From an uncultured Clostridia bacterium (lineage in GTDB: Bacteria; Bacillota; Clostridia; TANB77; CAG-508), in NCBI GenBank assembly GCA_934183325.1, contig CAKPSH010000004.1, forward strand, positions 27,433-91,432: 64,000 nucleotides of DNA, given 5' to 3'. Position 1 is the stretch's first letter, and each line of letters opens with the position of its first letter. Positions 3,805 to 57,995 of the stretch are shown here, in pieces. The notes beneath the pieces were generated by a model. The model was not told the DNA's origin, made no database searches, and was given only the letters and a program-made list of their open reading frames with translations. A program made the translations under genes and the position numbers.

Positions 3805-4692
3805 GTGTTAAACTTGAGCTATAAATTATTAGCAATTGATTTGGACGGTACATTATTGAACTCATATGGAGAAATATCAGAGGAAAATAAAAGAGCTATA
3901 AAAAAAGCGCAAGAGAATGGAATAGAAGTAGTTTTGGCATCAGGAAGAGTGCCAGATTCAATAGAAAGATATGCAAAGGAAATTGATTCACAAAAATTCT
4001 TAATTGCTGGAAATGGAACAATTTTAAAAGATATACAAAAAAATGAAATAATATATAATAATTTTATCTCAAAAGAGAAAGCTTTAAAAATAATAAGAAT
4101 GTGTGAAGAAAATAGTGTATTTTGCAATGTCTATACACAAAAAACAATAATAACAAAAGAATTAAACTATAATGTACAATATTATTATTATGAAAACAGC
4201 AAGAAAGATGATGAATTAAGAACTAATATAAATGTGGTTAATGATATTTATAAATATGTAGAACAAATAAATACAAGTCCAATTTCTAAAATAAATATAT
4301 GTGACGAAAATAAAATTATATTTAATAGTATAGTAAATAAATTAAAAAGAATAAACGGTGTGACAATTTTAGATGTTGAACATATGTCAAAAAAAGTCAT
4401 AAAAAAGGGATCAGAATTTATAGATTTACAATACTATTATACCGAAATAACAAATGAAATGGCAGACAAATGGGAGGCTATAAAGGAGCTGGCCAGAATT
4501 ATGAAGATACAAAAAAATGAAATTATTGCAATAGGAGATAATATAAATGACGAAAAAATGATTAATAATGCAGGACTCGGAATTGTTATGGGAGATAGTG
4601 CTTTAAGCCTAAAAAATGACAAAGATATTATCACTAAAAGTAATAATGAAGACGGAGTAGCGTATGCAATTGAAAACTATATATTAAAATAA
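3805..4692 (+). CDS. Cof-type HAD-IIB family hydrolase (sugar-phosphatase-like)
   Basis: LLAIDLDGTLL motif I, GR motif, and a C-terminal GDNINDEKMINNAG motif IV region characteristic of Cof/YidA phosphatases. Confidence 0.7.
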   Translation: MLNLSYKLLAIDLDGTLLNSYGEISEENKRAIKKAQENGIEVVLASGRVPDSIERYAKEIDSQKFLIAGNGTILKDIQKNEIIYNNFISKEKALKIIRMCEENSVFCNVYTQKTIITKELNYNVQYYYYENSKKDDELRTNINVVNDIYKYVEQINTSPISKINICDENKIIFNSIVNKLKRINGVTILDVEHMSKKVIKKGSEFIDLQYYYTEITNEMADKWEAIKELARIMKIQKNEIIAIGDNINDEKMINNAGLGIVMGDSALSLKNDKDIITKSNNEDGVAYAIENYILK

Positions 4693-7350: not shown

Positions 7351-9240
7351 ATGAACTATATTTTAATATTTTTAATTGTATGTGGTGCTGTTGCTGGTAT
7401 ATATTTCTTAATAAGAAGTAAAAAAAATGCAGAAGTAGAAAAAGATGTTGAAGTAGATGACAAAACGTATTCACTAGAATTGATGTCTAAATTTGTAAAA
7501 AAGAGACTAGATGATATTACAAAAGTTAATTTATATGATATTGGTCTTTCAGAAGAAGAGTTAAAAAGAAGAAAGAATAAAAAATATGAATTAAAAAAAG
7601 CTTTAAAAGGATGTACTTATGGAGATGTCAATGATAAAAAATATGTAAAAGGGATAATGTTTGATTTATTACTTAAAGAATATGGAGTAGATGAAACAAA
7701 TATATCAAAAGCAATTCCTTTTGATGTTCCATCATTACTTACACCTCAAGATAAATTTGATATAATAATATATAAATATAAAAAAGAATTTGGATATGAG
7801 GCGCTTACACAACTTATAAAAAAATATAATTTAGCGGTTTTAAAATATTTGGAGGGAGAAGCAAAGCCTTCTTATGTTATAACTTCACAGGAAATTTGTG
7901 ATATATTTGAAAAAGAACAAATTCAACTTGAATTTGATGAAAAACTAGAAGTAGTAGTTCAAAGAATATATCAATATTATAAAGGATATAGTAGTATTGA
8001 TGAAGTAAGAGATATGAACATAGATGGTGTGTCTGGAGGTGTATCTGGTTTACCAGAATCATTCTTAAGCCAAGTAGCACAGACAGATGGGGATTATTTA
8101 GGACAAGTAATGGATAACAAAGTTCCAAGATCATGTGATAGTATATGGATATTCTTCCAAGGAAAATCAATAAGATTAGCATTTTTATCATTTGGAAGTG
8201 AAAGTGAACTAAAAAGAGTATGTCAAAATATTTATAAATATAATAATCCAGGACAGTTATCAGATTCAAATGGTTATAAAATCAATGAAATGAAAGATGG
8301 TTCACGTGTCGTTGTTGTTAGACCAAGTATGGCAGAGTCATGGGCATTTTTCGTAAGAAAGTTCGATGTTAAACGTGCAACTTTGGAACAAATTATTACT
8401 TTTGAAGGAAAAGAAATGGCAATTGATTTGCTAAAATTTTTAGTAAAAGGAGCAAGAATTATTTCTCTTACAGGAGAGCAAGGTTGTGGTAAAACAACAA
8501 TGCTTATGGCAATGATTGAAAATATATATGAAACATTAAATATAAGGGTTCAAGAGATGGCTTTTGAGTTACACTTAAGAAAAATCTATCCAACAAGAAA
8601 TATTTTATCATTAAGAGAGACAGAAACAATATCTGGACAGGAAGGTCTAGATGTTCAAAAAAAGACAGATGGTTCTGTTAATATCATTGGTGAGGTTGCT
8701 ACAGACCCAGTTGCTTCATGGATGATACAAGCCGCACAGGTTGCTTCAAAATTCACATTATTTACTCACCACGCAAAAACATTTCCAAATCTCGTTACAG
8801 CATTAAGAAACTCAATGTTAAGAACAGGTGTATTCAAAGATGAAAAAACGGCAGAAGAACAAGTTATTCAAGTATTGAATTTTGATATTCACTTAATAAA
8901 AGACTTTAGAGGAAGAAGATATATTGAAAGAGTTACAGAGTGTGTGCCAATAGAAAATGCAAATCCATATAATAGAGATTATAGAAACGAAAAAACAATA
9001 GAGGGAAAAATAGAAAAATTTATGGATAATGCAACAAATTATTTCCAAAATGTTACAGACAGACAAACTTATGAATATCATAACATTATGGAATTTAGAG
9101 GAGATAAATATGTTTTAACTCATAAAATATCTGACAAAAATATTAGAGAAATGAGAGAAAACATGGATGACGCAGATGCAAAGGATTTTGATGCATTTAT
9201 AGAAAAGTATTGGGGAAAACAATCAAAAGCATCAAAGTAA
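7351..9240 (+). CDS. tadA: TadA/CpaF-family secretion ATPase (VirB11/PilT superfamily) with N-terminal TM segment
   Basis: Walker A GEQGCGKTT, downstream Asp/His box regions; N-terminal hydrophobic helix ILIFLIVCGAVAGIYFLI. Confidence 0.75.
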   Translation: MNYILIFLIVCGAVAGIYFLIRSKKNAEVEKDVEVDDKTYSLELMSKFVKKRLDDITKVNLYDIGLSEEELKRRKNKKYELKKALKGCTYGDVNDKKYVKGIMFDLLLKEYGVDETNISKAIPFDVPSLLTPQDKFDIIIYKYKKEFGYEALTQLIKKYNLAVLKYLEGEAKPSYVITSQEICDIFEKEQIQLEFDEKLEVVVQRIYQYYKGYSSIDEVRDMNIDGVSGGVSGLPESFLSQVAQTDGDYLGQVMDNKVPRSCDSIWIFFQGKSIRLAFLSFGSESELKRVCQNIYKYNNPGQLSDSNGYKINEMKDGSRVVVVRPSMAESWAFFVRKFDVKRATLEQIITFEGKEMAIDLLKFLVKGARIISLTGEQGCGKTTMLMAMIENIYETLNIRVQEMAFELHLRKIYPTRNILSLRETETISGQEGLDVQKKTDGSVNIIGEVATDPVASWMIQAAQVASKFTLFTHHAKTFPNLVTALRNSMLRTGVFKDEKTAEEQVIQVLNFDIHLIKDFRGRRYIERVTECVPIENANPYNRDYRNEKTIEGKIEKFMDNATNYFQNVTDRQTYEYHNIMEFRGDKYVLTHKISDKNIREMRENMDDADAKDFDAFIEKYWGKQSKASK

Positions 9241-9266
9241 AAGATTTCCAGTGAAAGGAGAAAAAA

Positions 9267-25275: not shown

Positions 25276-26364
25276 ATGTTAAAAAAGATTTATAAATTAG
25301 GAGAAATGACACTAATAAAAATGTATAGAGAACAAGAATATAAGGAACATAAACTAATAGATTTGTTTTGGGAATGCACTTTAACATGTAATGCTAAATG
25401 TAAACATTGTGGAAGCAGTGCTGAGAATAAGAAATATGATGATGAGTTAACAACAGAAGAAATAAAAAATGCATTTAAGCAAATTGCAAATGATATGGAT
25501 GCAAATAAAATTTTGATTAATGTAACAGGAGGAGAACCTTTAATAAGAAAAGATCTGTATGAAGTTATGGAATATGCTACCAATGAATTAGGATTTCATT
25601 GGGGGATGACTACAAACGGAATATTATTAAATGATGAAAATATTAAAAAATTAAAAAAGGCAAATATGGAAACAATTTCAATAAGTATAGATGGAATAGA
25701 AGAAACACATGATAGCTTTAGAGGAGTTCATGGAGCTTATAGAATAATAATTGACAATATAAAAAAATTAAATAAGGCTAATTTTGTGAAACATATTCAA
25801 GTTACAACTGTGTTTCATAAAAAAAATATTGACCAATTAGATGAATTATATTATATAATGAAAGATTTGAAATTAGATTCTTGGAGATTAGTAGCAATGG
25901 ATCCAATAGGAAGGGCAAAAGAGAATAGCAATTTATTATTAGATGGAGAAGAATTAAAAAAAATATTAGATTTTATTAAAACAAAGAAAAATGATAGAAA
26001 ACCGGAAATAACTTATGGATGTTCTAGTTTTCTCGGATTGGATTATGAAAAAGAAGTTAGAAAATATTATTTTTATTGTAAATCAGGAATAAATGTAGCA
26101 AGTATATTATATAATGGGGATTTATTTGTATGTCCTAATGTTCCAAGAAGAAAAGAATTAATACAAGGAAACATTAAAGTTGACAATTTTAAAGACGTAT
26201 GGGATAATAAATATAAACAATTTAGAAATAAAAATAGAACAAAATGTAGTTCTTGTGAACAATGCGAGCAATGGGAGTATTGCTTAGGCGGTTCTTTTCA
26301 TACTTGGGATTTTAATGAAAATATACAAAATAGATGTGTATATAAAATGATTAATAATAAGTAG
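25276..26364 (+). CDS. Radical SAM protein with C-terminal SPASM domain
   Basis: CNAKCKHC (Cx3Cx2C) cluster, GGEPL motif, and C-terminal CSSCEQCEQWEYCLGGS SPASM-like cysteine array. Confidence 0.7.
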   Translation: MLKKIYKLGEMTLIKMYREQEYKEHKLIDLFWECTLTCNAKCKHCGSSAENKKYDDELTTEEIKNAFKQIANDMDANKILINVTGGEPLIRKDLYEVMEYATNELGFHWGMTTNGILLNDENIKKLKKANMETISISIDGIEETHDSFRGVHGAYRIIIDNIKKLNKANFVKHIQVTTVFHKKNIDQLDELYYIMKDLKLDSWRLVAMDPIGRAKENSNLLLDGEELKKILDFIKTKKNDRKPEITYGCSSFLGLDYEKEVRKYYFYCKSGINVASILYNGDLFVCPNVPRRKELIQGNIKVDNFKDVWDNKYKQFRNKNRTKCSSCEQCEQWEYCLGGSFHTWDFNENIQNRCVYKMINNK

Positions 26365-26373
26365 AGGAAAATT

Positions 26374-26733
26374 ATGAAAGAAGTAATAAATAAGTTAAAA
26401 AAATTTTTATCAAAATTAAAAGGCATAATTGGTGGTATAGGAGTAGGAATATTAGCATTTGCAAATAAAATATATGCGGTTCCTCTTAATATAATAAATC
26501 AAGCAGGAATGATAGAAACTGTTTATGGTATTCCAAGACCAAGTCCAATAAAGGTGATTATTAAAGTATCACAAGTGTTTATTATACCAATAGCCATGTT
26601 AATTGGATTATTAGTTTATTTTAAGAAAAGTAAAAGTAGTAAAAAGAAAAAGATATTAGTAATATTAGGAATTATTATTATAGCTATAGTATTTTACTTT
26701 ATAGTGAATAAAATTATGTATGAGTTATTTTAA
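26374..26733 (+). CDS. Small membrane protein (2-3 TM) downstream of the rSAM gene
   Basis: Hydrophobic segments IIGGIGVGILAF, IIPIAMLIGLLVYF, ILVILGIIIIAIVFYFIV; lysine-rich loop. Confidence 0.4.
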   Translation: MKEVINKLKKFLSKLKGIIGGIGVGILAFANKIYAVPLNIINQAGMIETVYGIPRPSPIKVIIKVSQVFIIPIAMLIGLLVYFKKSKSSKKKKILVILGIIIIAIVFYFIVNKIMYELF

Positions 26734-26782: not shown

Positions 26783-28174
26783 TTAAAAATCACAATTTTT
26801 TGGTGTTCTAGGGAATGGAATAACATCACGTATGTTTTGCATTCCAGTTAAATACATCATCATTCTTTCAAAACCTAATCCAAATCCAGAGTGAACAACA
26901 GAACCATATTTTCTTAAATCCATATACCAATCATAAGTATTTTCATCCATTCCTAGTTCTTTTATTTTTGCAGATAATTTATCGAAATCTTCCTCTCTTT
27001 GACTTCCACCAATTATTTCTCCAATACCAGGAGCAAGTAAATCAGTAGCTGCAACAGTTTTTCCATCAGGATTTTGTTTCATATAAAAAGCTTTAATTTC
27101 AGCAGGATAATCTGTTACGAAAACAGGTTTACCAAATAATTGCTCACAAATATATCTTTCATGTTCTGTTTGTAAATCAACTCCCCAAGAAACTTTATAT
27201 TCAAATTTATCATTAACTTTTTCTAATTCTTTAATAACATCTGTATAAGTGATTCTACCAAAATCAGAATTGATAACATTGTGTAATCTATCCAATAAGG
27301 TATTATCAATGAATTTATTAAAGAATTCCATTTCTTCAGGACATTCATTTAATACATAAGTAATTATATATTTTATCATATCTTCTGCTAAATCCATATC
27401 ATCTTTTAAATCAGCAAAACAGATTTCAGGTTCAATCATCCAAAATTCTGCAGCATGTTTAACGGTATTTGAATTTTCAGCTCTAAAAGTAGGACCAAAA
27501 GTATATACATTTCTAAAAGATGTAGCAAATGCTTCTGCATTTAATTGACCGCTAACAGTCAAATGAGCAGGTTTACCAAAGAAATCTTTGGAATAATCAA
27601 CTTTTCCATCATCAGTCATAGGAACATTAGCTAAATCAAAAGAATTTACATTAAACATTTCTCCTGCACCTTCAGCATCGCTAGATGTAATAAGTGGGGT
27701 ATGAACATATACAAATCCTCTTTCTTGAAAAAATTTGTGTATTGCAAAAGATAATACACTTCTAACTCTAAAAACAGCACTAAAAGTATTTGTACGAGGA
27801 CGTAAGTGAGATACTGTTCTTAAATATTCAAAACTTGTTTTCTTCTTTTGAAGTGGATAATCAAGAGAAGATAAATTTTCAATTGTTATTTCATTAGCTT
27901 TTATTTCAAAAGCTTGTTTTGCTCCTTCTGTTTTTATAAGAGTTCCTGTAACTTTGATAGAAGAACTAATTGATAATTTACATATTTCATTAAAATTAGA
28001 TAAGGTATCCTCAAAAACGATTTGAACATTTTTAAAAAAACTTCCATCATTTAATTCTATAAAACCAAAAGCTTTTGAATTTCGAACTGTTCTAACCCAA
28101 CCTTCTAAAATAACTTGCTTATCAACGTATTCGCTAGTATTACGGTACAAATCTTTAATTGTTAATTTCTTCAT
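26783..28174 (-). CDS. asnS: Asparagine--tRNA ligase
   Basis: N-terminal OB anticodon-binding region ([21 protein letters not shown]), class II motifs (FRAE, GLGFER); 463 aa from ATG 28174 after AGGGATGA RBS. Confidence 0.85.
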
Positions 28175-28313
28175 AAAATCATCCCTTCTATAATATAAGA
28201 TTTCAATATTATATACCAAAAAAGGTTGAAAATTCAATAGATTATACGAAATATATAGAAAAAATGAAAAAAAGATGATATAATACTTGTTATGTAAATT
28301 AGGAGGAGAAGAA

Positions 28314-30317
28314 ATGAGAAAACATATTTCTAACGAAAAAAAATTAAATTTAATTCTGGAGTATATAAATGAAAAAGGAACAAAACCAATTTATAGTTCA
28401 GAATATAAAGGATATTCTGTTGGGGTATATTTAATATATTTAAGAAAATTAGCATTTGATACAAGAGATTTAGATGAAAAAATAGTACAAACAATGATAG
28501 AAAATGGTTTACTAGATAAAAAATGCGATTTTATTGAAGACAAATTATATAGATTAGAAAAATTTTGTAGAAAATATCCACAAATATGGAGAGAAAGAAG
28601 ATATAAAAGCAGAGATGAACTATTCGCAAGTATTCCAGAGGAAAGAGAAAAAGTAGAGCCATTATTAGAGCAAGCAATAAGTGATTACAGATATATTTCA
28701 GTAAGAAAAGATGATGGAAAAATATCTGAAAAAGATATTTTAAGATTAAGAGAAGCTGGAGCTGGATATAAATTTGAAGATGATAAAGTAATAGAAAGTA
28801 TAGTAAAGAAATATGGAATATCAAAAAATGATTTAGCTGTTGTATGTAACAAATATGGAAATATAAAAAATTTCAAAAACGAATATGTAAAAGCATTAAC
28901 AGAAAGAAGACTTAATGAAATACAACAAAATATACCAAAAAATATTTATGAAAGACTTATAAAAGGATTTGATATATCTCAACCAGACTTTATAAAAAGA
29001 AATAACGGAATAGAAAAACTTATAGACGATATTGTAGGAGCTGAAGAAGGAAATATTGTAAATTTAGAACCAATAAGAAAAAAAATAAAGGAAATAATGA
29101 CAAGAGGAGATAGAAAAAAACAATATGAATTAATAAAATTAAAATATGGAATAGAGGATGGAATAGAAAGAAGTAATGCACAAGTAGCAAAAATAATCGG
29201 CATATCTAGTGAAGCAGTTAGACAATCAAAAGAACATACAATAAATGCTTTGAAAAGAACAGAGGTAAAAATTGTATATGAGGAAGAAAAAATAACAGGA
29301 AAAAGAAGAAGTGAATTTATAGAGGAATTCTTTAGAAATTATGATATATTTATGCCAGATGAGTATATAGAAATAGATAAGGCTGTAAGCATGAAATTAG
29401 AAGAGTTATGTATGAAAGAAAATAAAGTTAGAGAGACTTACAAAAGAAAAATAGAAATATATGGAGATATAAAATTATCAAAAACGATGTTAAGAGGATA
29501 TATTGTAGAAAAATTGAATAAAATTGAAATAGATACTATAGAAGAATTAACACAATATTCAGAAGAGGAATTAATAAAAAAATCAAAATTTAGTAAAAGG
29601 ATAATAATACAAATAAAGGAAGCTTTAAAGGAATTTGGACTAGGATTAGGAAAAACTGTAATAAACCACCAAACAGATGAAAATAGAAACAGTGATATAA
29701 AGCAAAGTCAAGACATTACTAATAATACTAGTATAACAATTGCACATAAAAGTAGAAAAATAGAAGTATTAGATTTAAGTCCTTGTTTATATAATATTCT
29801 TAGAAGAAATGGAATAGAAAATATTGAAGATATTGGAGACATATCAGATAAGAAAAATATTTCAAGATTATTATTAATGAAGGGGTTAGGAAGACAATAT
29901 TTAAATGAATTAGTATATAAAATGAACAATATTAGAGAGTTAAATATAGAAAAACAAAAAACAAACAAAGGTAAAAGTGAAACAGAAAAGAATGATAATG
30001 AGGATATAAGAATAGAAGATACAGGAGAACTAAATAAATATACAATATTAAGAAAATTAAATGATAGAGGAATAATTACACTAGGAGATTTGACTAAGTA
30101 CAATGAAGAAGAATTGAAACTTATTGCAAAAATTAATTTTCAAAGCATTGCAAAAATAAAAGTAATGTTAAAAAAATATGGATTACACTTAGAAGAAAGA
30201 AAAGATAAAAATATAGATGCAGAATTAATGCAGGCAATTCAAGAGTTGCGAGATGCATATAAACAAAAAGTACAAAATAGAATACCAGAACACACATCAG
30301 CAGGAGAAGAAAGATAG
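28314..30317 (+). CDS. Large protein with a sigma-70 region-4 HTH plus three RpoA alpha-CTD-like helix-hairpin-helix repeats
   Basis: [41 protein letters not shown] matches sigma region 4.2. Three segments ([32 protein letters not shown]; [46 protein letters not shown]; [46 protein letters not shown]) resemble the alpha-CTD fold seen in rpoA at 57048-57995. Start ATG 28314 after AGGAGGAG. Confidence 0.5.
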
Positions 30318-30331
30318 TAGGGGATTAAATA

Positions 30332-30487
30332 ATGAATAGATTAGAACAGACAATGGAAGATATGGAAATATTAAAGAAAATAGTAAATGCCGAAATTGAT
30401 ATAAAGAGTGTAGAATATTGTCAGAAAAAAAGAATACTTGACATCTGTAAACAAGAATTAGTAAAATTAAAAAAAGAAAAGTGTTGA
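30332..30487 (+). CDS. Possible small protein (51 aa) between the sigma4/alphaCTD gene and rlmD
   Basis: ATG with AGGGGA RBS; MNRLEQTMEDMEILKKIVNAEIDIKSVEYCQKKRILDICKQELVKLKKEKC; under the ORF-track cutoff. Confidence 0.25.
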   Translation: MNRLEQTMEDMEILKKIVNAEIDIKSVEYCQKKRILDICKQELVKLKKEKC

Positions 30488-30498
30488 GGAGAGATCAA

Positions 30499-31866
30499 GT
30501 GGAAAAAGAAATAAGAAAAAACGATGAATATATCGTTGATATAGTAGATAATGGATTTGAAGGAGAAGGAATTGCAAAAATAAACAATTTTACAATTTTT
30601 GTAAAAGGAGCAATTGAAGGAGAAAAAGTAAGAATACTAATTGTAAAAGTAAATTCATCTTATGCTTTTGCAAAAATACTAGAAATAATAAAAAAATCTC
30701 CATATAGATGTGATGAGGATTGTTCAACATATAAAAGATGTGGAGGATGTGATTTAAGACATATAAAGTATGAAAAAACATTAGAAATAAAGAAAAACAT
30801 GGTACAATCACTAGTTAACAAAACATTAGAAAATAAAATAGATGTAAATAATACAGTTGGAATGGAAAAGCCATTTAATTATAGAAATAAAGCACAATAT
30901 CCAGTAGGTATTAATAAAAACGGAGAACCAATATTTGGAGTTTTTGCAAATAGAACACATGAAATAATTCCTATTGACGATTGCAAAATTCAAACAAAAA
31001 TATCAGAAAGAATTGCACAATATGTAATTAATTTTATGAAAGATAATAAAATAAAAGTTTATGATGAAAAAAACAATAAGGGTGTATTAAGACATATTGT
31101 TGTAAAAGTTGGAATGAAGACTAATGAAGTAATGTGTGTATTAGTTGTAAATGAAGAAAAAATAAAAAATGAAGATGAATTGGTAAAAGGATTAATTGAT
31201 GCATTTCCAGAAATAAAAACAGTAGTAAAAAATGTAAATACAAAGAATACAAATGTAATATTAGGCAATAGAAATATAATTTTATATGGAAACGGATATA
31301 TAAAAGACAAATTAGGTGATTTTATATTTAAAATTTCACCAATGTCGTTTTATCAAATAAATCCAGTACAAACAGAAAAATTATACAATTTAGCAATTCA
31401 AAATGGAGAATTAAGCAAAGATAAAGTAATATTTGATTTATATTGTGGAATAGGAACAATTGGAATTTTTGCATCAAAGAATGTAAAAAAAGTATATGGA
31501 ATTGAAATTGTACCTCAAGCAATAGAAGATGCAAAGGAGAATGCAAAACTAAACAATATACAGAATGCAGAATTTATGGTTGGAGACGTAGAATTTGCAC
31601 TATCAGAATTAATAGAAAAAAGAAATATAATACCAGATGTAGTATTTGTAGATCCACCAAGAAGAGGATTAGACACTACTACTATTAAAAATTTAGAAAA
31701 AGTAAAACCAGAAAAAATAGTGTATATTAGTTGTAATCCAGCTACATTAGTAAGGGACTTAAAAATGTTTGAAGAAGAATATGAAATTAAAAGCATAATC
31801 CCAGTCGATTTATTCCCTTGGACTAAACATGTGGAATGTGTTTCGATATTATGTTGCAAAAACTAG
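30499..31866 (+). CDS. rlmD: 23S rRNA (uracil-C5)-methyltransferase RlmD/RumA family (TRAM + 4Fe-4S + SAM MTase)
   Basis: N-terminal TRAM fold, four-Cys cluster (C..CGGCDLRH), SAM-binding DLYCGIGTIG and catalytic region; start probably GTG 30499 after GAGGAGAG. Confidence 0.75.
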   Translation: MEKEIRKNDEYIVDIVDNGFEGEGIAKINNFTIFVKGAIEGEKVRILIVKVNSSYAFAKILEIIKKSPYRCDEDCSTYKRCGGCDLRHIKYEKTLEIKKNMVQSLVNKTLENKIDVNNTVGMEKPFNYRNKAQYPVGINKNGEPIFGVFANRTHEIIPIDDCKIQTKISERIAQYVINFMKDNKIKVYDEKNNKGVLRHIVVKVGMKTNEVMCVLVVNEEKIKNEDELVKGLIDAFPEIKTVVKNVNTKNTNVILGNRNIILYGNGYIKDKLGDFIFKISPMSFYQINPVQTEKLYNLAIQNGELSKDKVIFDLYCGIGTIGIFASKNVKKVYGIEIVPQAIEDAKENAKLNNIQNAEFMVGDVEFALSELIEKRNIIPDVVFVDPPRRGLDTTTIKNLEKVKPEKIVYISCNPATLVRDLKMFEEEYEIKSIIPVDLFPWTKHVECVSILCCKN

Positions 31867-31967
31867 AAAAATATAGTAAAATATTTATGTCTATTTGTTG
31901 ATATCCTGGTTTCAGGACGACTCGAGACATCCGCAAGAAAAAAACAATGTTTCTGGGAGGAAAAACA

Positions 31968-32429
31968 ATGAAATTATTTCACAAAGAAAATGGACAAGAG
32001 ACAGTCTATGTGCAGATGCAGGATATTTTGTATCTGGTGCATGAAAGTAATGTTTCTGTTCCGGCGTCTATCTTCGAAAAAGTCTTTTCAGTAGGAGCGG
32101 TTTTTGTTACTGATGCAAACCGGTTTGACTTTATAAGGTTTGAAGAAGAACATGAGGTTGACTTTTTTAAGAAACTTGAGTTTGTTATCGACTATGACCA
32201 GTACAAAGATTTCTCTGAAGAACAGCTTATAGCAGAGGTGAAAAAGTTAGAGGATAAGGCGAACGAGATCGCTGAAAAATGGAACGATATGACATCAGAA
32301 GAGAGAAGAGAAAACAGCGAGCTATACGAAGAACACCAGAATCTCGACTATATGTGCAGGTTTTTGTGTGAGATTTACTTCGTGAAACACGGCAAGAGGT
32401 CTATGCCATTTCCTGACTTTGTAAAATAA
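31968..32429 (+). CDS. Hypothetical protein on a compositionally atypical (about 40% GC by eye) islet
   Basis: ATG after GGGAGG RBS; ORF GC well above the surrounding window; followed by GC-rich hairpins; no family recognised. Confidence 0.45.
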   Translation: MKLFHKENGQETVYVQMQDILYLVHESNVSVPASIFEKVFSVGAVFVTDANRFDFIRFEEEHEVDFFKKLEFVIDYDQYKDFSEEQLIAEVKKLEDKANEIAEKWNDMTSEERRENSELYEEHQNLDYMCRFLCEIYFVKHGKRSMPFPDFVK

Positions 32430-32583
32430 CCCACAAAAGCTCTATCAAAAGAGCTAGAAGAAGTGAGAAGAACAAAGCTCTGCCTGTAGGCAGGGCTTTG
32501 TTCGTTATAATAAATAAGAAAATAATTGTAAAGTAAGTAGAACTGTGATACATTATATATAAATAATATTAGGAGAGTAAGAG

Positions 32584-32916
32584 ATGCAAAAATATTATGA
32601 ATGGTGTATAGAATTATTAAATAATTGGAAAAGCAAAAACATTGAAAATATAGTTAATTTATTTGATGAAAAAGTGGAGTATTATGAAACTCCTAAAGAA
32701 AAAATAAATACGATAAAAGAAATTGAAAAAATGTGGGAAGAGATAAAGGAACAAAATACAAATAATATAGAATTTAATATATTATGCCAAAATTACGAAT
32801 GCTGTATAGTTAATTTTATTCTAAAAGACGTAGAATCATATGATATGATTTATCAAATAAAATTAAATGAAAACAATAAGTGTATATTCCTAAAACAATG
32901 GTATATGACTATTTAG
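32584..32916 (+). CDS. Hypothetical small protein
   Basis: 110-aa ORF with RBS AGGAGAG; no family recognised. Confidence 0.4.
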   Translation: MQKYYEWCIELLNNWKSKNIENIVNLFDEKVEYYETPKEKINTIKEIEKMWEEIKEQNTNNIEFNILCQNYECCIVNFILKDVESYDMIYQIKLNENNKCIFLKQWYMTI

Positions 32917-57047: not shown

Positions 57048-57995
57048 ATGATAGAATTTGAAAAGCCAAATATTGAATGTATAGATGTAGATGAAAAAAA
57101 TAACTATGCTAAATTTGTTTGTGAACCATTAGAAAGAGGATATGGAGTAACAATAGGAAACTCTTTAAGAAGAATATTGTTATCATCACTTCCAGGATGT
57201 GCAATAACAAGCATAAAAGTAGATGGTGTAGTTCATGAATTCTCTACAATACCAGATGTAGTAGAAGACGTTTCTGAATTAATAGTAAACTTAAAAGGTG
57301 TTAGATTCAAATCTTTTGACAACGAAGATAAAATCGTAAAGATAGACTTTAGTGGAGAAGGCGAAGTAACAGCTGGAGATATTCAAACAGATGGTACAAT
57401 TGAAGTTTTAAATCCAGACTTACATATCGCAACAGTAGCTGAAGGTGGTCATTTAAAAATAGAAATGACAGTTGAAAAAGGAAGAGGATATAATACTGCT
57501 GCTAAAAATAAGAAACCAAACCAAGATATATCTGTATTACCGATAGATTCAATTTTTACACCAGTGAAGAAAGTAAATTATTCTGTAGAAAACACAAGAG
57601 TTGGACAAATGGTTGATTTTGATAAATTAGTTATTGAAGTATGGACAGATGGAAGCTTAAAAGCTTATGAAGCATTAAGTTTAGCAGCTAAAGTAATAGT
57701 TGGACATCTTGAATTATTCATAGATTTATCTGAAACAGCAAAAAATACTCAGGTTATGGTAGAAAAGGAAGAATCAAAAACAGCAAAAGTATTAGAAATG
57801 TCTATAGAAGATTTGGAATTATCTGTAAGATCATTCAATTGCTTAAAAAGAGCTGGAATTTCAACAGTTCAAGACTTGACTAACAAAACTGAAGCTGATA
57901 TGATGAAAGTAAGAAATTTAGGAAAGAAATCATTAGATGAAGTAACACATAAGTTATATTCATTAGGATTAGGCTTTGCTAAAGACGAGGGATAA
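57048..57995 (+). CDS. rpoA: DNA-directed RNA polymerase subunit alpha
   Basis: NTD dimerisation domain and CTD ([32 protein letters not shown]); start ATG 57048 after GGAGGT. Confidence 0.95.

Follow-up and report, generated by a model that had tools for sequence, protein, structure and literature searches.

Sigma region 4 and the C-terminal domain of the alpha subunit (alpha-CTD) are textbook parts of the RNA polymerase (RNAP) holoenzyme, and sigma factors and RpoA are normally the only proteins that contain them. Phage proteins attack these two more often than any other part of RNAP. The main core-binding determinant of a sigma factor is region 2, which also serves in -10 recognition and melting. 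For alpha-CTD, we take R265, N268, G296 and K298 (E. coli numbering) to be the '265 determinant' for UP-element DNA binding; Y263 of the B. subtilis subunit is the Spx contact.

Here we describe a gene from an uncultured Clostridia bacterium whose product contains both kinds of domain. It lies in a 64-kb stretch of DNA, which we call the window. The closest described systems each resemble the window protein in part. With SigA of S. aureus and B. subtilis (4g6d, 7ckq), it shares region (3.2-)4.2, including the motif YG[LI]xDG...T/S. Unlike primary sigma factors, it lacks regions 1.2-3 (region 2 among them), carries its sigma region 4 mid-way in a larger protein and has R584 and R586 replaced. 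Compared with the alpha-CTD of RpoA (1z3e, 1lb2, 9zum), it has three copies of the same ~60-aa (HhH)2 fold (1.2-1.5 A) in tandem, and no alpha N-terminal assembly domain. Many of its relatives retain the R265/N268/G296/K298 signature, which the window protein has mostly lost.

Three further comparisons can be made. One is with proteins of the helicase-associated (HA, PF03457) domain and the SF2 helicases that carry it (structure 2kta, B. vulgatus BVU_0683); HA units form tandem arrays elsewhere too. Compared with HA helicases, the window protein has no helicase core, and known HA proteins are not described with sigma region 4 or alpha-CTD. The design of M. kandleri topoisomerase V (8df9) is comparable: its C-terminal repeats, too, are a row of helix-hairpin-helix (HhH)-type domains that serves a DNA enzyme, whether fused to it or acting alongside it. 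Topoisomerase V is the top Foldseek match for the whole model, but a weak one (E 0.016, probability 0.2), and the window repeats differ in being of alpha-CTD subtype and combined with a sequence-specific helix-turn-helix (HTH). In engineered sigma-4/beta-flap-tip chimeras (3t72, 7kuf, 6ido), as in the window protein, an amphipathic helix follows sigma region 4.

Gene and features

The features of the locus, all on the forward (+) strand, are as follows.

28256..28284, +: promoter-like site TAGAAA-17 nt-TATAAT with extended -10 TG (consensus scan)
28287-30317, +: open reading frame (ORF list)
28301..28308, +: ribosome-binding site AGGAGGAG, 6 nt 5' of ATG 28314 (sequence reading)
28314..30317, +: gene for the HA-sigma4-alphaCTD protein, 667 aa (ORF list; identical product on other contigs)
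28314..28523, +: HA-like repeat 1, aa 1-70
28524..28793, +: HA-like repeat 2, aa 71-160 (family alignments)
28794..29009, +: helical subdomain, aa 161-232 (alignments; motifs KYGIS...YGxxxxF and FDxSxPDF)
29010..29273, +: sigma-70 region 4 (perhaps 3.2-4.2) HTH, aa 233-320 (profile, phmmer, superposition)
29274..29468, +: acidic helical linker, aa 321-385 (conserved in the family alignment)
29469..29657, +: alpha-CTD-like domain 1, aa 386-448 (RNA_pol_A_CTD 22.3 bits, E 1e-4 alone)
29745..29948, +: alpha-CTD-like domain 2, aa 478-545 (RNA_pol_A_CTD 30.1 bits alone)
30009..30197, +: alpha-CTD-like domain 3, aa 566-628 (RNA_pol_A_CTD 17.4 bits, E 4e-3 alone)
30332-30487, +: 51-aa partner ORF, small helical basic protein (conserved in the allele and in relatives)

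Translation from ATG 28314 gives 667 aa plus a stop, or 668 codons. The gene reported in an earlier note on this DNA as encoding a 668-aa protein is real, with the stop codon counted in the length. A spurious ORF is ruled out by the strong ribosome-binding site, identical calls on other contigs, a dN/dS of 0.31 and a high-confidence fold. Gene callers predict the identical 667-aa product (P0001) on other contigs, in a cluster of 35 members. The dN/dS value was obtained against an 88%-identical allele (L003) and indicates purifying, not diversifying, selection overall. The AlphaFold model has a mean pLDDT of 84.4. The gene is divergent from asnS across a 139-bp intergenic region that contains the candidate promoter at 28256..28284, which has 10/12 consensus matches plus TG and is a consensus match only.

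The whole protein has a pI of 8.9. Its folded modules are basic (pI 9.0-9.6), with the exception of HA repeat 2 (pI 6.6, net charge 0), and each is of a kind known or suspected to bind nucleic acid.

The possible 51-aa ORF that had been pointed out downstream exists and is conserved. A GGGGA lies 9 nt ahead of it, and there is overlap between its stop codon and the rumA ribosome-binding site. In the allele L093 it is retained with 2 nt differences and called as a gene. It also resembles the ORFs downstream of distant family members in L084 (Smith-Waterman z 8.8) and L001 (z 5.3); 0/2000 shuffles reach the score.

Domain identities

N-terminal module. HA-like repeats 1 and 2 align with each other in hhalign (probability 69%, E 4e-5). 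Repeat 2 holds the family-invariant residues Y125, Y127 and R131 in the motif DYxYIxxRKxxGKL. Pfam HA gives no significant match on the window protein's own N-terminus; PF03457 matches the N-terminal repeats in 14/24 family members. The helical subdomain that follows (aa 161-232) is conserved and confidently modelled (pLDDT about 90), and it has no Pfam or PDB match. These 232 residues, missed by the earlier note, define the family.

Sigma region 4. The reading of the central segment as sigma region 4 is borne out by several comparisons. The NCBIfam SigB model matches aa 234-317 (E 4e-8), M. tuberculosis SigB is the top PDB match in phmmer, and the family profile matches sigma-A region 4 structures (4g6d, 7ckq) with E about 1e-13 (9e-14 for 4g6d). 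In Foldseek, the AlphaFold model superposes on sigma-A domain 4 (4g6d_A) at 2.0 A over 62 columns. Judged by its sequence, the domain is of group-1, or primary-sigma, type. Contact residues were scored over R584-Q589 in E. coli numbering. The window recognition helix keeps E585, R588 and Q589, with R584 and R586 replaced, and so retains 3/5 contact positions. Among 105 family members, R586 is kept in 61, Q589 in 65, and R or K stands at R584 in 50. The region 4 HTH is present, and a true sigma factor is ruled out by the absence of region 2 (Pfam Sigma70_r2).

Linker. The linker (net charge -4, pLDDT 87-94) carries the invariant residues F335 and F346 and the motif F[IV]RxYFxxxDIF..ELD. We considered the post-sigma-4 helix (ExFIRxYF) as a mimic of the beta-flap tip (EKLLRAIF). 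The two are alike by eye, without statistical support: the profile score was -1.2 bits and 453/2000 shuffles scored at least as high. This candidate was rejected on the sequence evidence.

Alpha-CTD-like domains. Pfam RNA_pol_A_CTD (PF03118) matches the whole protein in three stretches with 44.2 bits (E 1.6e-11; curated cut-off 23.8), in agreement with the three alpha-CTD-like domains proposed earlier; only the middle repeat exceeds the cut-off by itself. Of the Pfam families that had been suggested for this protein, this one is found; Sigma70_r4 (16-18 bits) stays under its cut-off of 24.1. NCBIfam rpoA models match with E 1e-12, and PDB RpoA-CTD matches in phmmer span aa 400-451 (domain 1). 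The model superposes on solved alpha-CTD structures at 1.2 A over 65 columns (1z3e_B) and 1.5 A over 63 columns (1lb2_E). Domain 3 shows the same helical pattern as the other repeats (pLDDT about 90) and is followed by a C-terminal helix, aa 632-656. The rpoA equivalogs match solely over their C-terminal ~50-80 positions and score far below their cut-offs (47.6 bits against 277), leaving out the alpha N-terminal dimerisation/assembly domain. The alpha-CTD fold is present, and an RpoA paralogue is ruled out by the absence of the N-terminal domain; the true rpoA gene occupies 57048-57995, in agreement with the earlier note.

The canonical contacts R265/N268/G296/K298 are kept at 1/4, 2/4 and 0/4 positions in domains 1, 2 and 3. 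Domain 1 has R for K298 and S for G296; MAFFT places an R opposite R265, in a segment that is unaligned in the alignment used for the 1/4 score. R265 and K298 are C and Q in domain 2, and N and Q in domain 3, so that both are lost in 2/3 copies and the full signature is present in none. Because the signature is mostly lost, the label of UP-element-binding modules is doubtful for the window protein; it fits many relatives. Across the family, 97/145 alpha-CTD copies keep at least three of the four contacts, and several helicase-fused members (e.g. P0004, P0074, P0087) are near-canonical. An aromatic residue stands at the Y263-equivalent position in 3/3 window repeats and in 81/145 family copies.

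Family and genomic context

Extent. The family comprises ~120 protein clusters, all from uncultured, mostly gut Clostridia, whose annotations go no further than 'hypothetical protein' and 'DEAD/DEAH box helicase family protein'. It is rare and patchy, and clusters mostly have 1-4 members. Its proteins are K/E-rich; word-index homologue searches gave 4 and 7 matches, and members were collected by a full HMMER scan. A genome-contig search with the window protein found no match. An AsnRS-based contig search recovered the synteny, but no family member beside asnS in 80 species.

Alignments and a module HMM scan of 172 proteins show a fixed domain order, HA-HA-X-sigma4-linker-(alphaCTD)1-4; the module scan also finds relatives with 8-12 alpha-CTD copies. 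The window protein has this order and the invariant residues Y125, Y127, R131, F335 and F346. The architecture had been called unusual, and our literature searches turned up no account of it. As far as found, the family is uncharacterised, and we predict that it consists of modular DNA-binding proteins restricted to Clostridia.

Helicase link. The family is linked to an SF2 helicase both by fusion and by neighbourhood. About 10% of the family carries the helicase as an N-terminal fusion; the core (ResIII/DEAD plus Helicase_C) was found in 6/30 relatives and is absent from the window protein. The neighbourhood evidence comes from 10 loci. At two with standalone members (L091, L088), a homologous helicase lies 1-3 kb upstream and is 29-31% identical to the helicase part of fused members (E 1e-34 to 1e-55). 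L088 also has a 145-aa small ORF (95% identical) after the helicase and again after the family gene. No helicase of the linked clade occurs within the 64-kb window. Neither the helicase link nor the HA module had been noticed in the earlier note.

Small downstream ORFs. A small ORF without a Pfam match lies directly downstream of the family gene in 9/10 loci (the window, L001/L002, L084, L085/L086, L088/L089, L090, L091, L092 and L093; not L087). Homology between two groups of these ORFs, S1 (window, L001, L084) and S2 (L085, L090, L091, L092), is not supported (hhalign probability 0.2%).

Phage and defence searches. The window gene is flanked by the chromosomal housekeeping genes asnS and rumA, has the GC content and skew of its surroundings, and has no integrase or phage genes in its flanks; housekeeping neighbours are the rule in most family loci. 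Neither the N-terminal module nor the whole architecture occurs in phage genomes, plasmids, IMG/VR contigs or BFVD structures, where we found isolated alpha-CTD or sigma region 4 pieces only. PHROGs has no match for the window protein; PHROG 351 'sigma factor' matches 5/30 family members. A phage, plasmid or viral origin was rejected on these searches. Membership of a known defence system was likewise rejected: neither the window protein nor the 51-aa ORF has a match in PADLOC-DB. In fused relatives, the matches to the PbeA, mREase_IV, MzaA and PglW models are confined to their generic helicase-core and HTH portions.

Interpretation

Our preferred reading, held with slightly less than even confidence, is that the window gene is a functional chromosomal gene whose product, assembled from promoter-reading modules, is an adaptor that binds or targets DNA independently of RNAP. 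Such a protein would bind DNA without RNAP, via the same two reading heads that the holoenzyme uses upstream of promoters. The sigma region 4 domain would read a -35-like hexamer, and the alpha-CTD/HhH and HA modules would bind adjacent A/T-rich duplex, thereby marking or tethering the protein to promoter-like DNA. In about one-tenth of relatives, the array would serve an SF2 (RadD/XPB/SauUSI-like) helicase as its C-terminal targeting arm. Standalone members such as the window protein would either be a separate adaptor to a helicase of this kind whose gene lies at another site, or act alone as an occluding or architectural regulator. Either way, they would act jointly with the small helical protein encoded directly downstream.

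For the family, DNA is the probable ligand because many members keep canonical contact residues in both sigma region 4 and alpha-CTD. Recognition of promoter-like DNA is weakest for the window protein itself, since its alpha-CTD domains keep 1, 2 and 0 of 4 contacts and its sigma region 4 keeps 3/5. The HA module and the recurrent SF2 helicase shift the likely role away from the alpha-CTD mimic or anti-alpha factor of the earlier note, which is not supported as stated, and towards a helicase-family DNA-targeting adaptor.

The protein might instead bind RNAP, which we consider unlikely. Its sigma region 4 would dock on the beta-flap tip as sigma-A region 4 does, and its alpha-CTD domains would substitute for or compete with alpha-CTD. 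It would then modulate transcription as a competitor of sigma region 4 or anti-alpha factor, or tether a helicase to RNAP for recycling or removing stalled complexes, as in RapA or HelD. RNAP is known to have helicase/ATPase partners, an established class to which RapA belongs (PMC8501970). The domain is of primary-sigma type by profile (E about 1e-13 to sigma-A region 4), and its fold superposes on structures in which the domain is partner-bound (4g6d, 8cwt). The DNA-contact residues lost from the window alpha-CTD domains would fit protein-protein roles, and the aromatic residue at the Spx-contact position is present in all three repeats and over half of the family copies. Against RNAP binding, sigma region 2 is missing, the flap-tip mimicry failed its profile test and the canonical DNA-contact residues of many relatives point to DNA as the ligand.

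Less probable still is an anti-phage or anti-mobile-element decoy or sensor, in which displayed copies of sigma region 4 and alpha-CTD would sponge or sense phage factors, with the helicase and small protein as effector or partner. This would suit the rarity and patchiness of the family and the window domains, which preserve their folds but have degraded DNA-contact residues, and it would suit the variable slot between asnS and rumA, which in the two closest species holds a CPBP (Abi-type) membrane protease instead. The alleles are mosaic: linker, alpha-CTD1 and spacer are 34-73% identical, the rest 94-100%. For the fused helicase, the best matches are SauUSI (7clg), a type IV restriction enzyme, and the PbeA/mREase_IV models, and L088 contains a HicB antitoxin gene. 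However, these helicase matches to defence models are generic SF2-core matches, the PADLOC search was negative for the window protein and its small ORF, and the protein has no nuclease or other effector domain. Housekeeping neighbours in most loci and purifying rather than diversifying selection overall also argue against a decoy.

A phage-derived RNAP modifier was also proposed earlier; the gene would belong to a prophage or be left over from a phage, and its product would redirect the host polymerase. This is very improbable: small phage proteins made of one alpha-CTD domain exist (BFVD, e.g. A0A6J5MNY7) and PHROG 351 matches some relatives, but the phage, viral-contig and plasmid records lack the architecture, PHROGs lacks the window protein, and the gene's composition and flanks are those of the chromosome.

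Significance

The family unites sigma region 4 and alpha-CTD outside the polymerase, and adds HA repeats, a recurrent SF2 helicase and, in 9/10 loci, a micro-protein partner. With promoter-like DNA as its ligand, as in the adaptor reading, the module would amount to a natural 'holoenzyme-free promoter reader'. It could be a new route to direct a helicase or repressor to promoters, and might be put to use in bringing other proteins to promoter DNA. Should its ligand instead be RNAP or phage factors, the module would represent a new regulator or decoy. A bolder and doubtful proposal is that the two heads were detached from the polymerase and rebuilt with HA repeats as either an RNAP-independent guide of SF2 helicases to promoters or an RNAP-surface decoy for phage anti-sigma and anti-alpha factors. 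If either were true, gut Clostridia would have a new class of transcription-linked or immunity-linked machinery that works with a micro-protein dedicated to it. Confined as it is to uncultured, mostly gut Clostridia with small genomes, the family exemplifies lineage-specific invention in a poorly studied part of the gut microbiota.

Gene and domain composition

The gene lies between the divergent asnS (26783-28174) and rumA, in a window of ~26% GC with uniform positive GC skew that AsnRS identity (79-89%) groups with uncultured gut Clostridia MAGs such as Clostridium sp. CAG:389. It is called identically on other contigs (cluster n=35). The gene reported in the earlier note at 28314-30317 stands. 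Its length does not: the product has 667 aa, and the 668 given previously included the stop codon. Between the window gene and the metagenome allele L003, dN/dS is 0.31.

Features of the gene and its product
28256-28284, + strand, extended -10 promoter-like site (consensus match)
28287-30317, + strand, ORF in the ORF list
28314, + strand, ATG start, with AGGAGGAG 6 nt upstream
30332-30487, 51-aa ORF
aa 1-70, module A
aa 71-160, module B, with invariant Y125, Y127 and R131
aa 161-232, module C
aa 233-320, sigma-4
aa 321-385, conserved acidic linker, with invariant F335 and F346
after the linker, alpha-CTD domains, three copies here (1-4 across the family), with variable spacers between them

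The earlier note read the protein as sigma region 4 plus three alpha-CTD-like domains. Pfam RNA_pol_A_CTD scores 44.2 bits (cut-off 23.8) over three stretches, and 22.3, 30.1 and 17.4 bits on repeats 1, 2 and 3 scanned separately. Sigma70_r4 is below threshold on the whole protein and reaches 18.3 bits when scanned alone. NCBIfam rpoA models match (E 1e-12), as does the SigB model at aa 234-317 (E 4e-8), and PDB phmmer is consistent with these assignments. Family alignment A2, used as a profile, matches region 4 of the S. aureus, B. subtilis and C. difficile sigma-A proteins (E ~1e-13). An AlphaFold2 model built from an alignment of 30 sequences has a mean pLDDT of 84.4, with disorder confined to both inter-repeat spacers and the final residues. 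In Foldseek, parts of the model superpose on alpha-CTD (1z3e_B, 1.2 Å over 65 columns; 1lb2_E, 1.5 Å over 63; 9zum, 1.2-1.3 Å) and on sigma-A domain 4 (4g6d_A, 2.0 Å over 62 columns). With sequence, profile and structure matches in agreement, the observation is therefore confirmed, far beyond chance.

Separately, Phage_rep_org_N (PF09681) gives a sub-threshold match at 30057-30284 (aa 582-657; 21.9 bits, cut-off 23.3), where TIGR01714 also matches (E 2e-3). The match, which overlaps the C-terminal helix as well as alpha-CTD copy 3, probably reflects generic helical similarity.

A family with a fixed architecture

A word-index search found only four relatives of the window protein. Scanning 1.84 billion cluster representatives in full with HMMER raised this to 167 (E <= 1e-3), most of them aligning across aa 1-400 and not the alpha-CTD part. 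Family alignments, together with scans using module HMMs built from them, show a fixed module order across ~120 proteins. Of 24 N-modules, 14 match PF03457, the helicase-associated (HA) domain, the window copy itself having no match; this N-terminal HA module is the part overlooked in the earlier note. Among 30 members, Pfam finds RNA_pol_A_CTD in 28, Sigma70_r4 in 19 and ResIII/DEAD/Helicase_C in six. Clusters are tiny (mostly 1-4 members). Members are named in public sources only as 'hypothetical protein' or 'DEAD/DEAH box helicase family protein', in each case from Clostridia MAGs, and literature searches found nothing on the architecture. The family is real and unusual, a new uncharacterised architecture assembled from known domains.

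The HMMER scan also returned proteins with only part of this arrangement. Five metagenomic proteins (P0033, P0130, P0096, P0080, P0139) carry 7-12 tandem alpha-CTD-like domains without the HA/sigma-4 module and apparently form a separate uncharacterised family. Five others (P0152, P0124, P0148, P0064, P0123) consist solely of 3-10 tandem HA-like repeats whose unit corresponds to aa 1-70 of the window protein. Models of the BREX kinase PglW (PADLOC, NCBIfam) show weak alignments with the members' alpha-CTD region (E 1e-4 to 7e-3), which suggests an alpha-CTD-like segment in PglW at profile positions ~780-955.

Contact residues

We compared the positions that we take to contact the -35 and UP elements (E. 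coli numbering: sigma R584/E585/R586/R588/Q589; alpha R265/N268/G296/K298). Across 105 members, the sigma-4 contacts are kept in 50 (R584, as R or K), 34 (E585), 61 (R586), 40 (R588) and 65 (Q589). At least three of the four alpha contacts are kept in 97 of 145 alpha-CTD copies, and several fused members, which carry an N-terminal helicase, have near-canonical sets (e.g. P0004, P0074, P0087). In the window protein, E585, R588 and Q589 are present, with S584 and A586 in place of arginine, and alpha-CTD copies 1, 2 and 3 retain one, two and none of the four contacts. The suggestion that such copies are UP-element-binding modules suits many relatives; for the window protein specifically it is doubtful, its degraded contacts weakening the analogy. 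Among the folded modules of this protein, HA repeat 2 (pI 6.6) is the only one that is not basic, the others having pI 9.0-9.6. Flap-tip mimicry by the conserved helix that follows sigma-4 was not supported when tested by sequence.

Helicase and small-ORF linkage

In fused members (e.g. P0004, P0013, P0176) an SF2 helicase, closest in the PDB to SauUSI (7clg), RadD and XPB, precedes the HA module. In two loci a large separate helicase gene lies 1-3 kb upstream of a standalone member (L091, 929 aa; L088, 1709 aa), and these helicases are 29-31% identical to the fused domain (E 1e-34 to 1e-55). No helicase of the fused/L088/L091 type was found within the 64-kb window. L088 also holds two 95%-identical 145-aa ORFs (3914-4351 and 8022-8459); one comes after the 1709-aa DEAD/ResIII helicase and the other after family member P0010, with a HicB-like antitoxin gene between the copies.

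A small ORF without a Pfam match begins within 45 nt of the family-gene stop, or overlaps it, in 9 of 10 loci. The 51-aa ORF, listed as possible in the earlier note, gains support: it is retained in allele L093 (one synonymous and one non-synonymous change) and resembles the small ORFs of loci L084 and L001 (Smith-Waterman z 8.8 and 5.3; 0/2000 shuffles reach the score), where the preceding family proteins share just 23-28% identity with that of the window. It has no match in Pfam, PHROG or PADLOC. Small ORFs of L085, L090, L091 and L092 form a second group (z 6-36 among themselves), and homology between the two groups was not demonstrated.

No terminator was found between the window gene, the 51-aa ORF and rumA. 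A near-consensus promoter-like site (TTGACA-18 nt-TAAAAT, 30438-30467) lies within the 51-aa ORF, just 5' of rumA. The stretch 30485-30501 holds the likely start of that gene, a GTG ~12 nt past the ORF stop with AGGAGA ahead of it, in place of the listed GTG at 30481.

Locus variation

The nearest GTDB species are two (AsnRS 89% identical), and both have a CPBP-type membrane protease of 356-368 aa in the asnS-rumA slot, which makes this slot a gene-swap hotspot. This CPBP/CAAX-type (Abi-family) intramembrane protease (L004 1829-2935; L005 4517-5587; equivalent to window 28238-30480) replaces both the family gene and the 51-aa ORF. A family member is absent from all 80 asnS loci examined in related species; metagenome allele L003 shares the window's asnS-family gene arrangement. 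P0002 is 94-100% identical to the window protein but only 34-73% in the linker/alpha-CTD1/spacer (29274-29744), whereas P0003 shows the opposite pattern, diverging chiefly in HA1 and sigma-4. This mosaic divergence within a species cluster suggests recombination between alleles.

Other parts of the window also vary or lack annotation. Between the PPIase gene and asnS (25276-26733), a 362-aa radical-SAM/SPASM enzyme and a 119-aa membrane protein without a Pfam match are missing at that position in same-lineage contig L003 and sister species L004; the pair could represent another variable insertion, perhaps a cassette for peptide maturation. At 7351-11351, upstream of the studied region, an unannotated pair comprises a 629-aa protein (weak T2SSE secretion-ATPase match) and, after it, a 694-aa protein without a Pfam match. 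Two ORFs at 31947-32916 (160 and 110 aa), flanked by rumA and the gene for peptide deformylase, likewise lack a Pfam match.

Interpretation

The best-supported reading, which we hold tentatively, is that the window protein would be an RNAP-independent DNA-binding or targeting array of promoter-reading modules. Its function would be linked to that of an SF2 helicase and of a partner micro-protein. For the window protein itself, we infer DNA binding, promoter-like specificity and cooperation with a helicase. A modulator that binds RNAP is an unlikely alternative, and a protein that senses phage factors or acts as their decoy is more doubtful still. The phage-derived RNAP modifier proposed in the earlier note is essentially excluded: searches of phage genomes, plasmids, IMG/VR contigs and BFVD found no relatives. 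PHROG 351 'sigma factor' matches some of the family members only. The mechanism is a proposal; the family is of interest to transcription and helicase biology.
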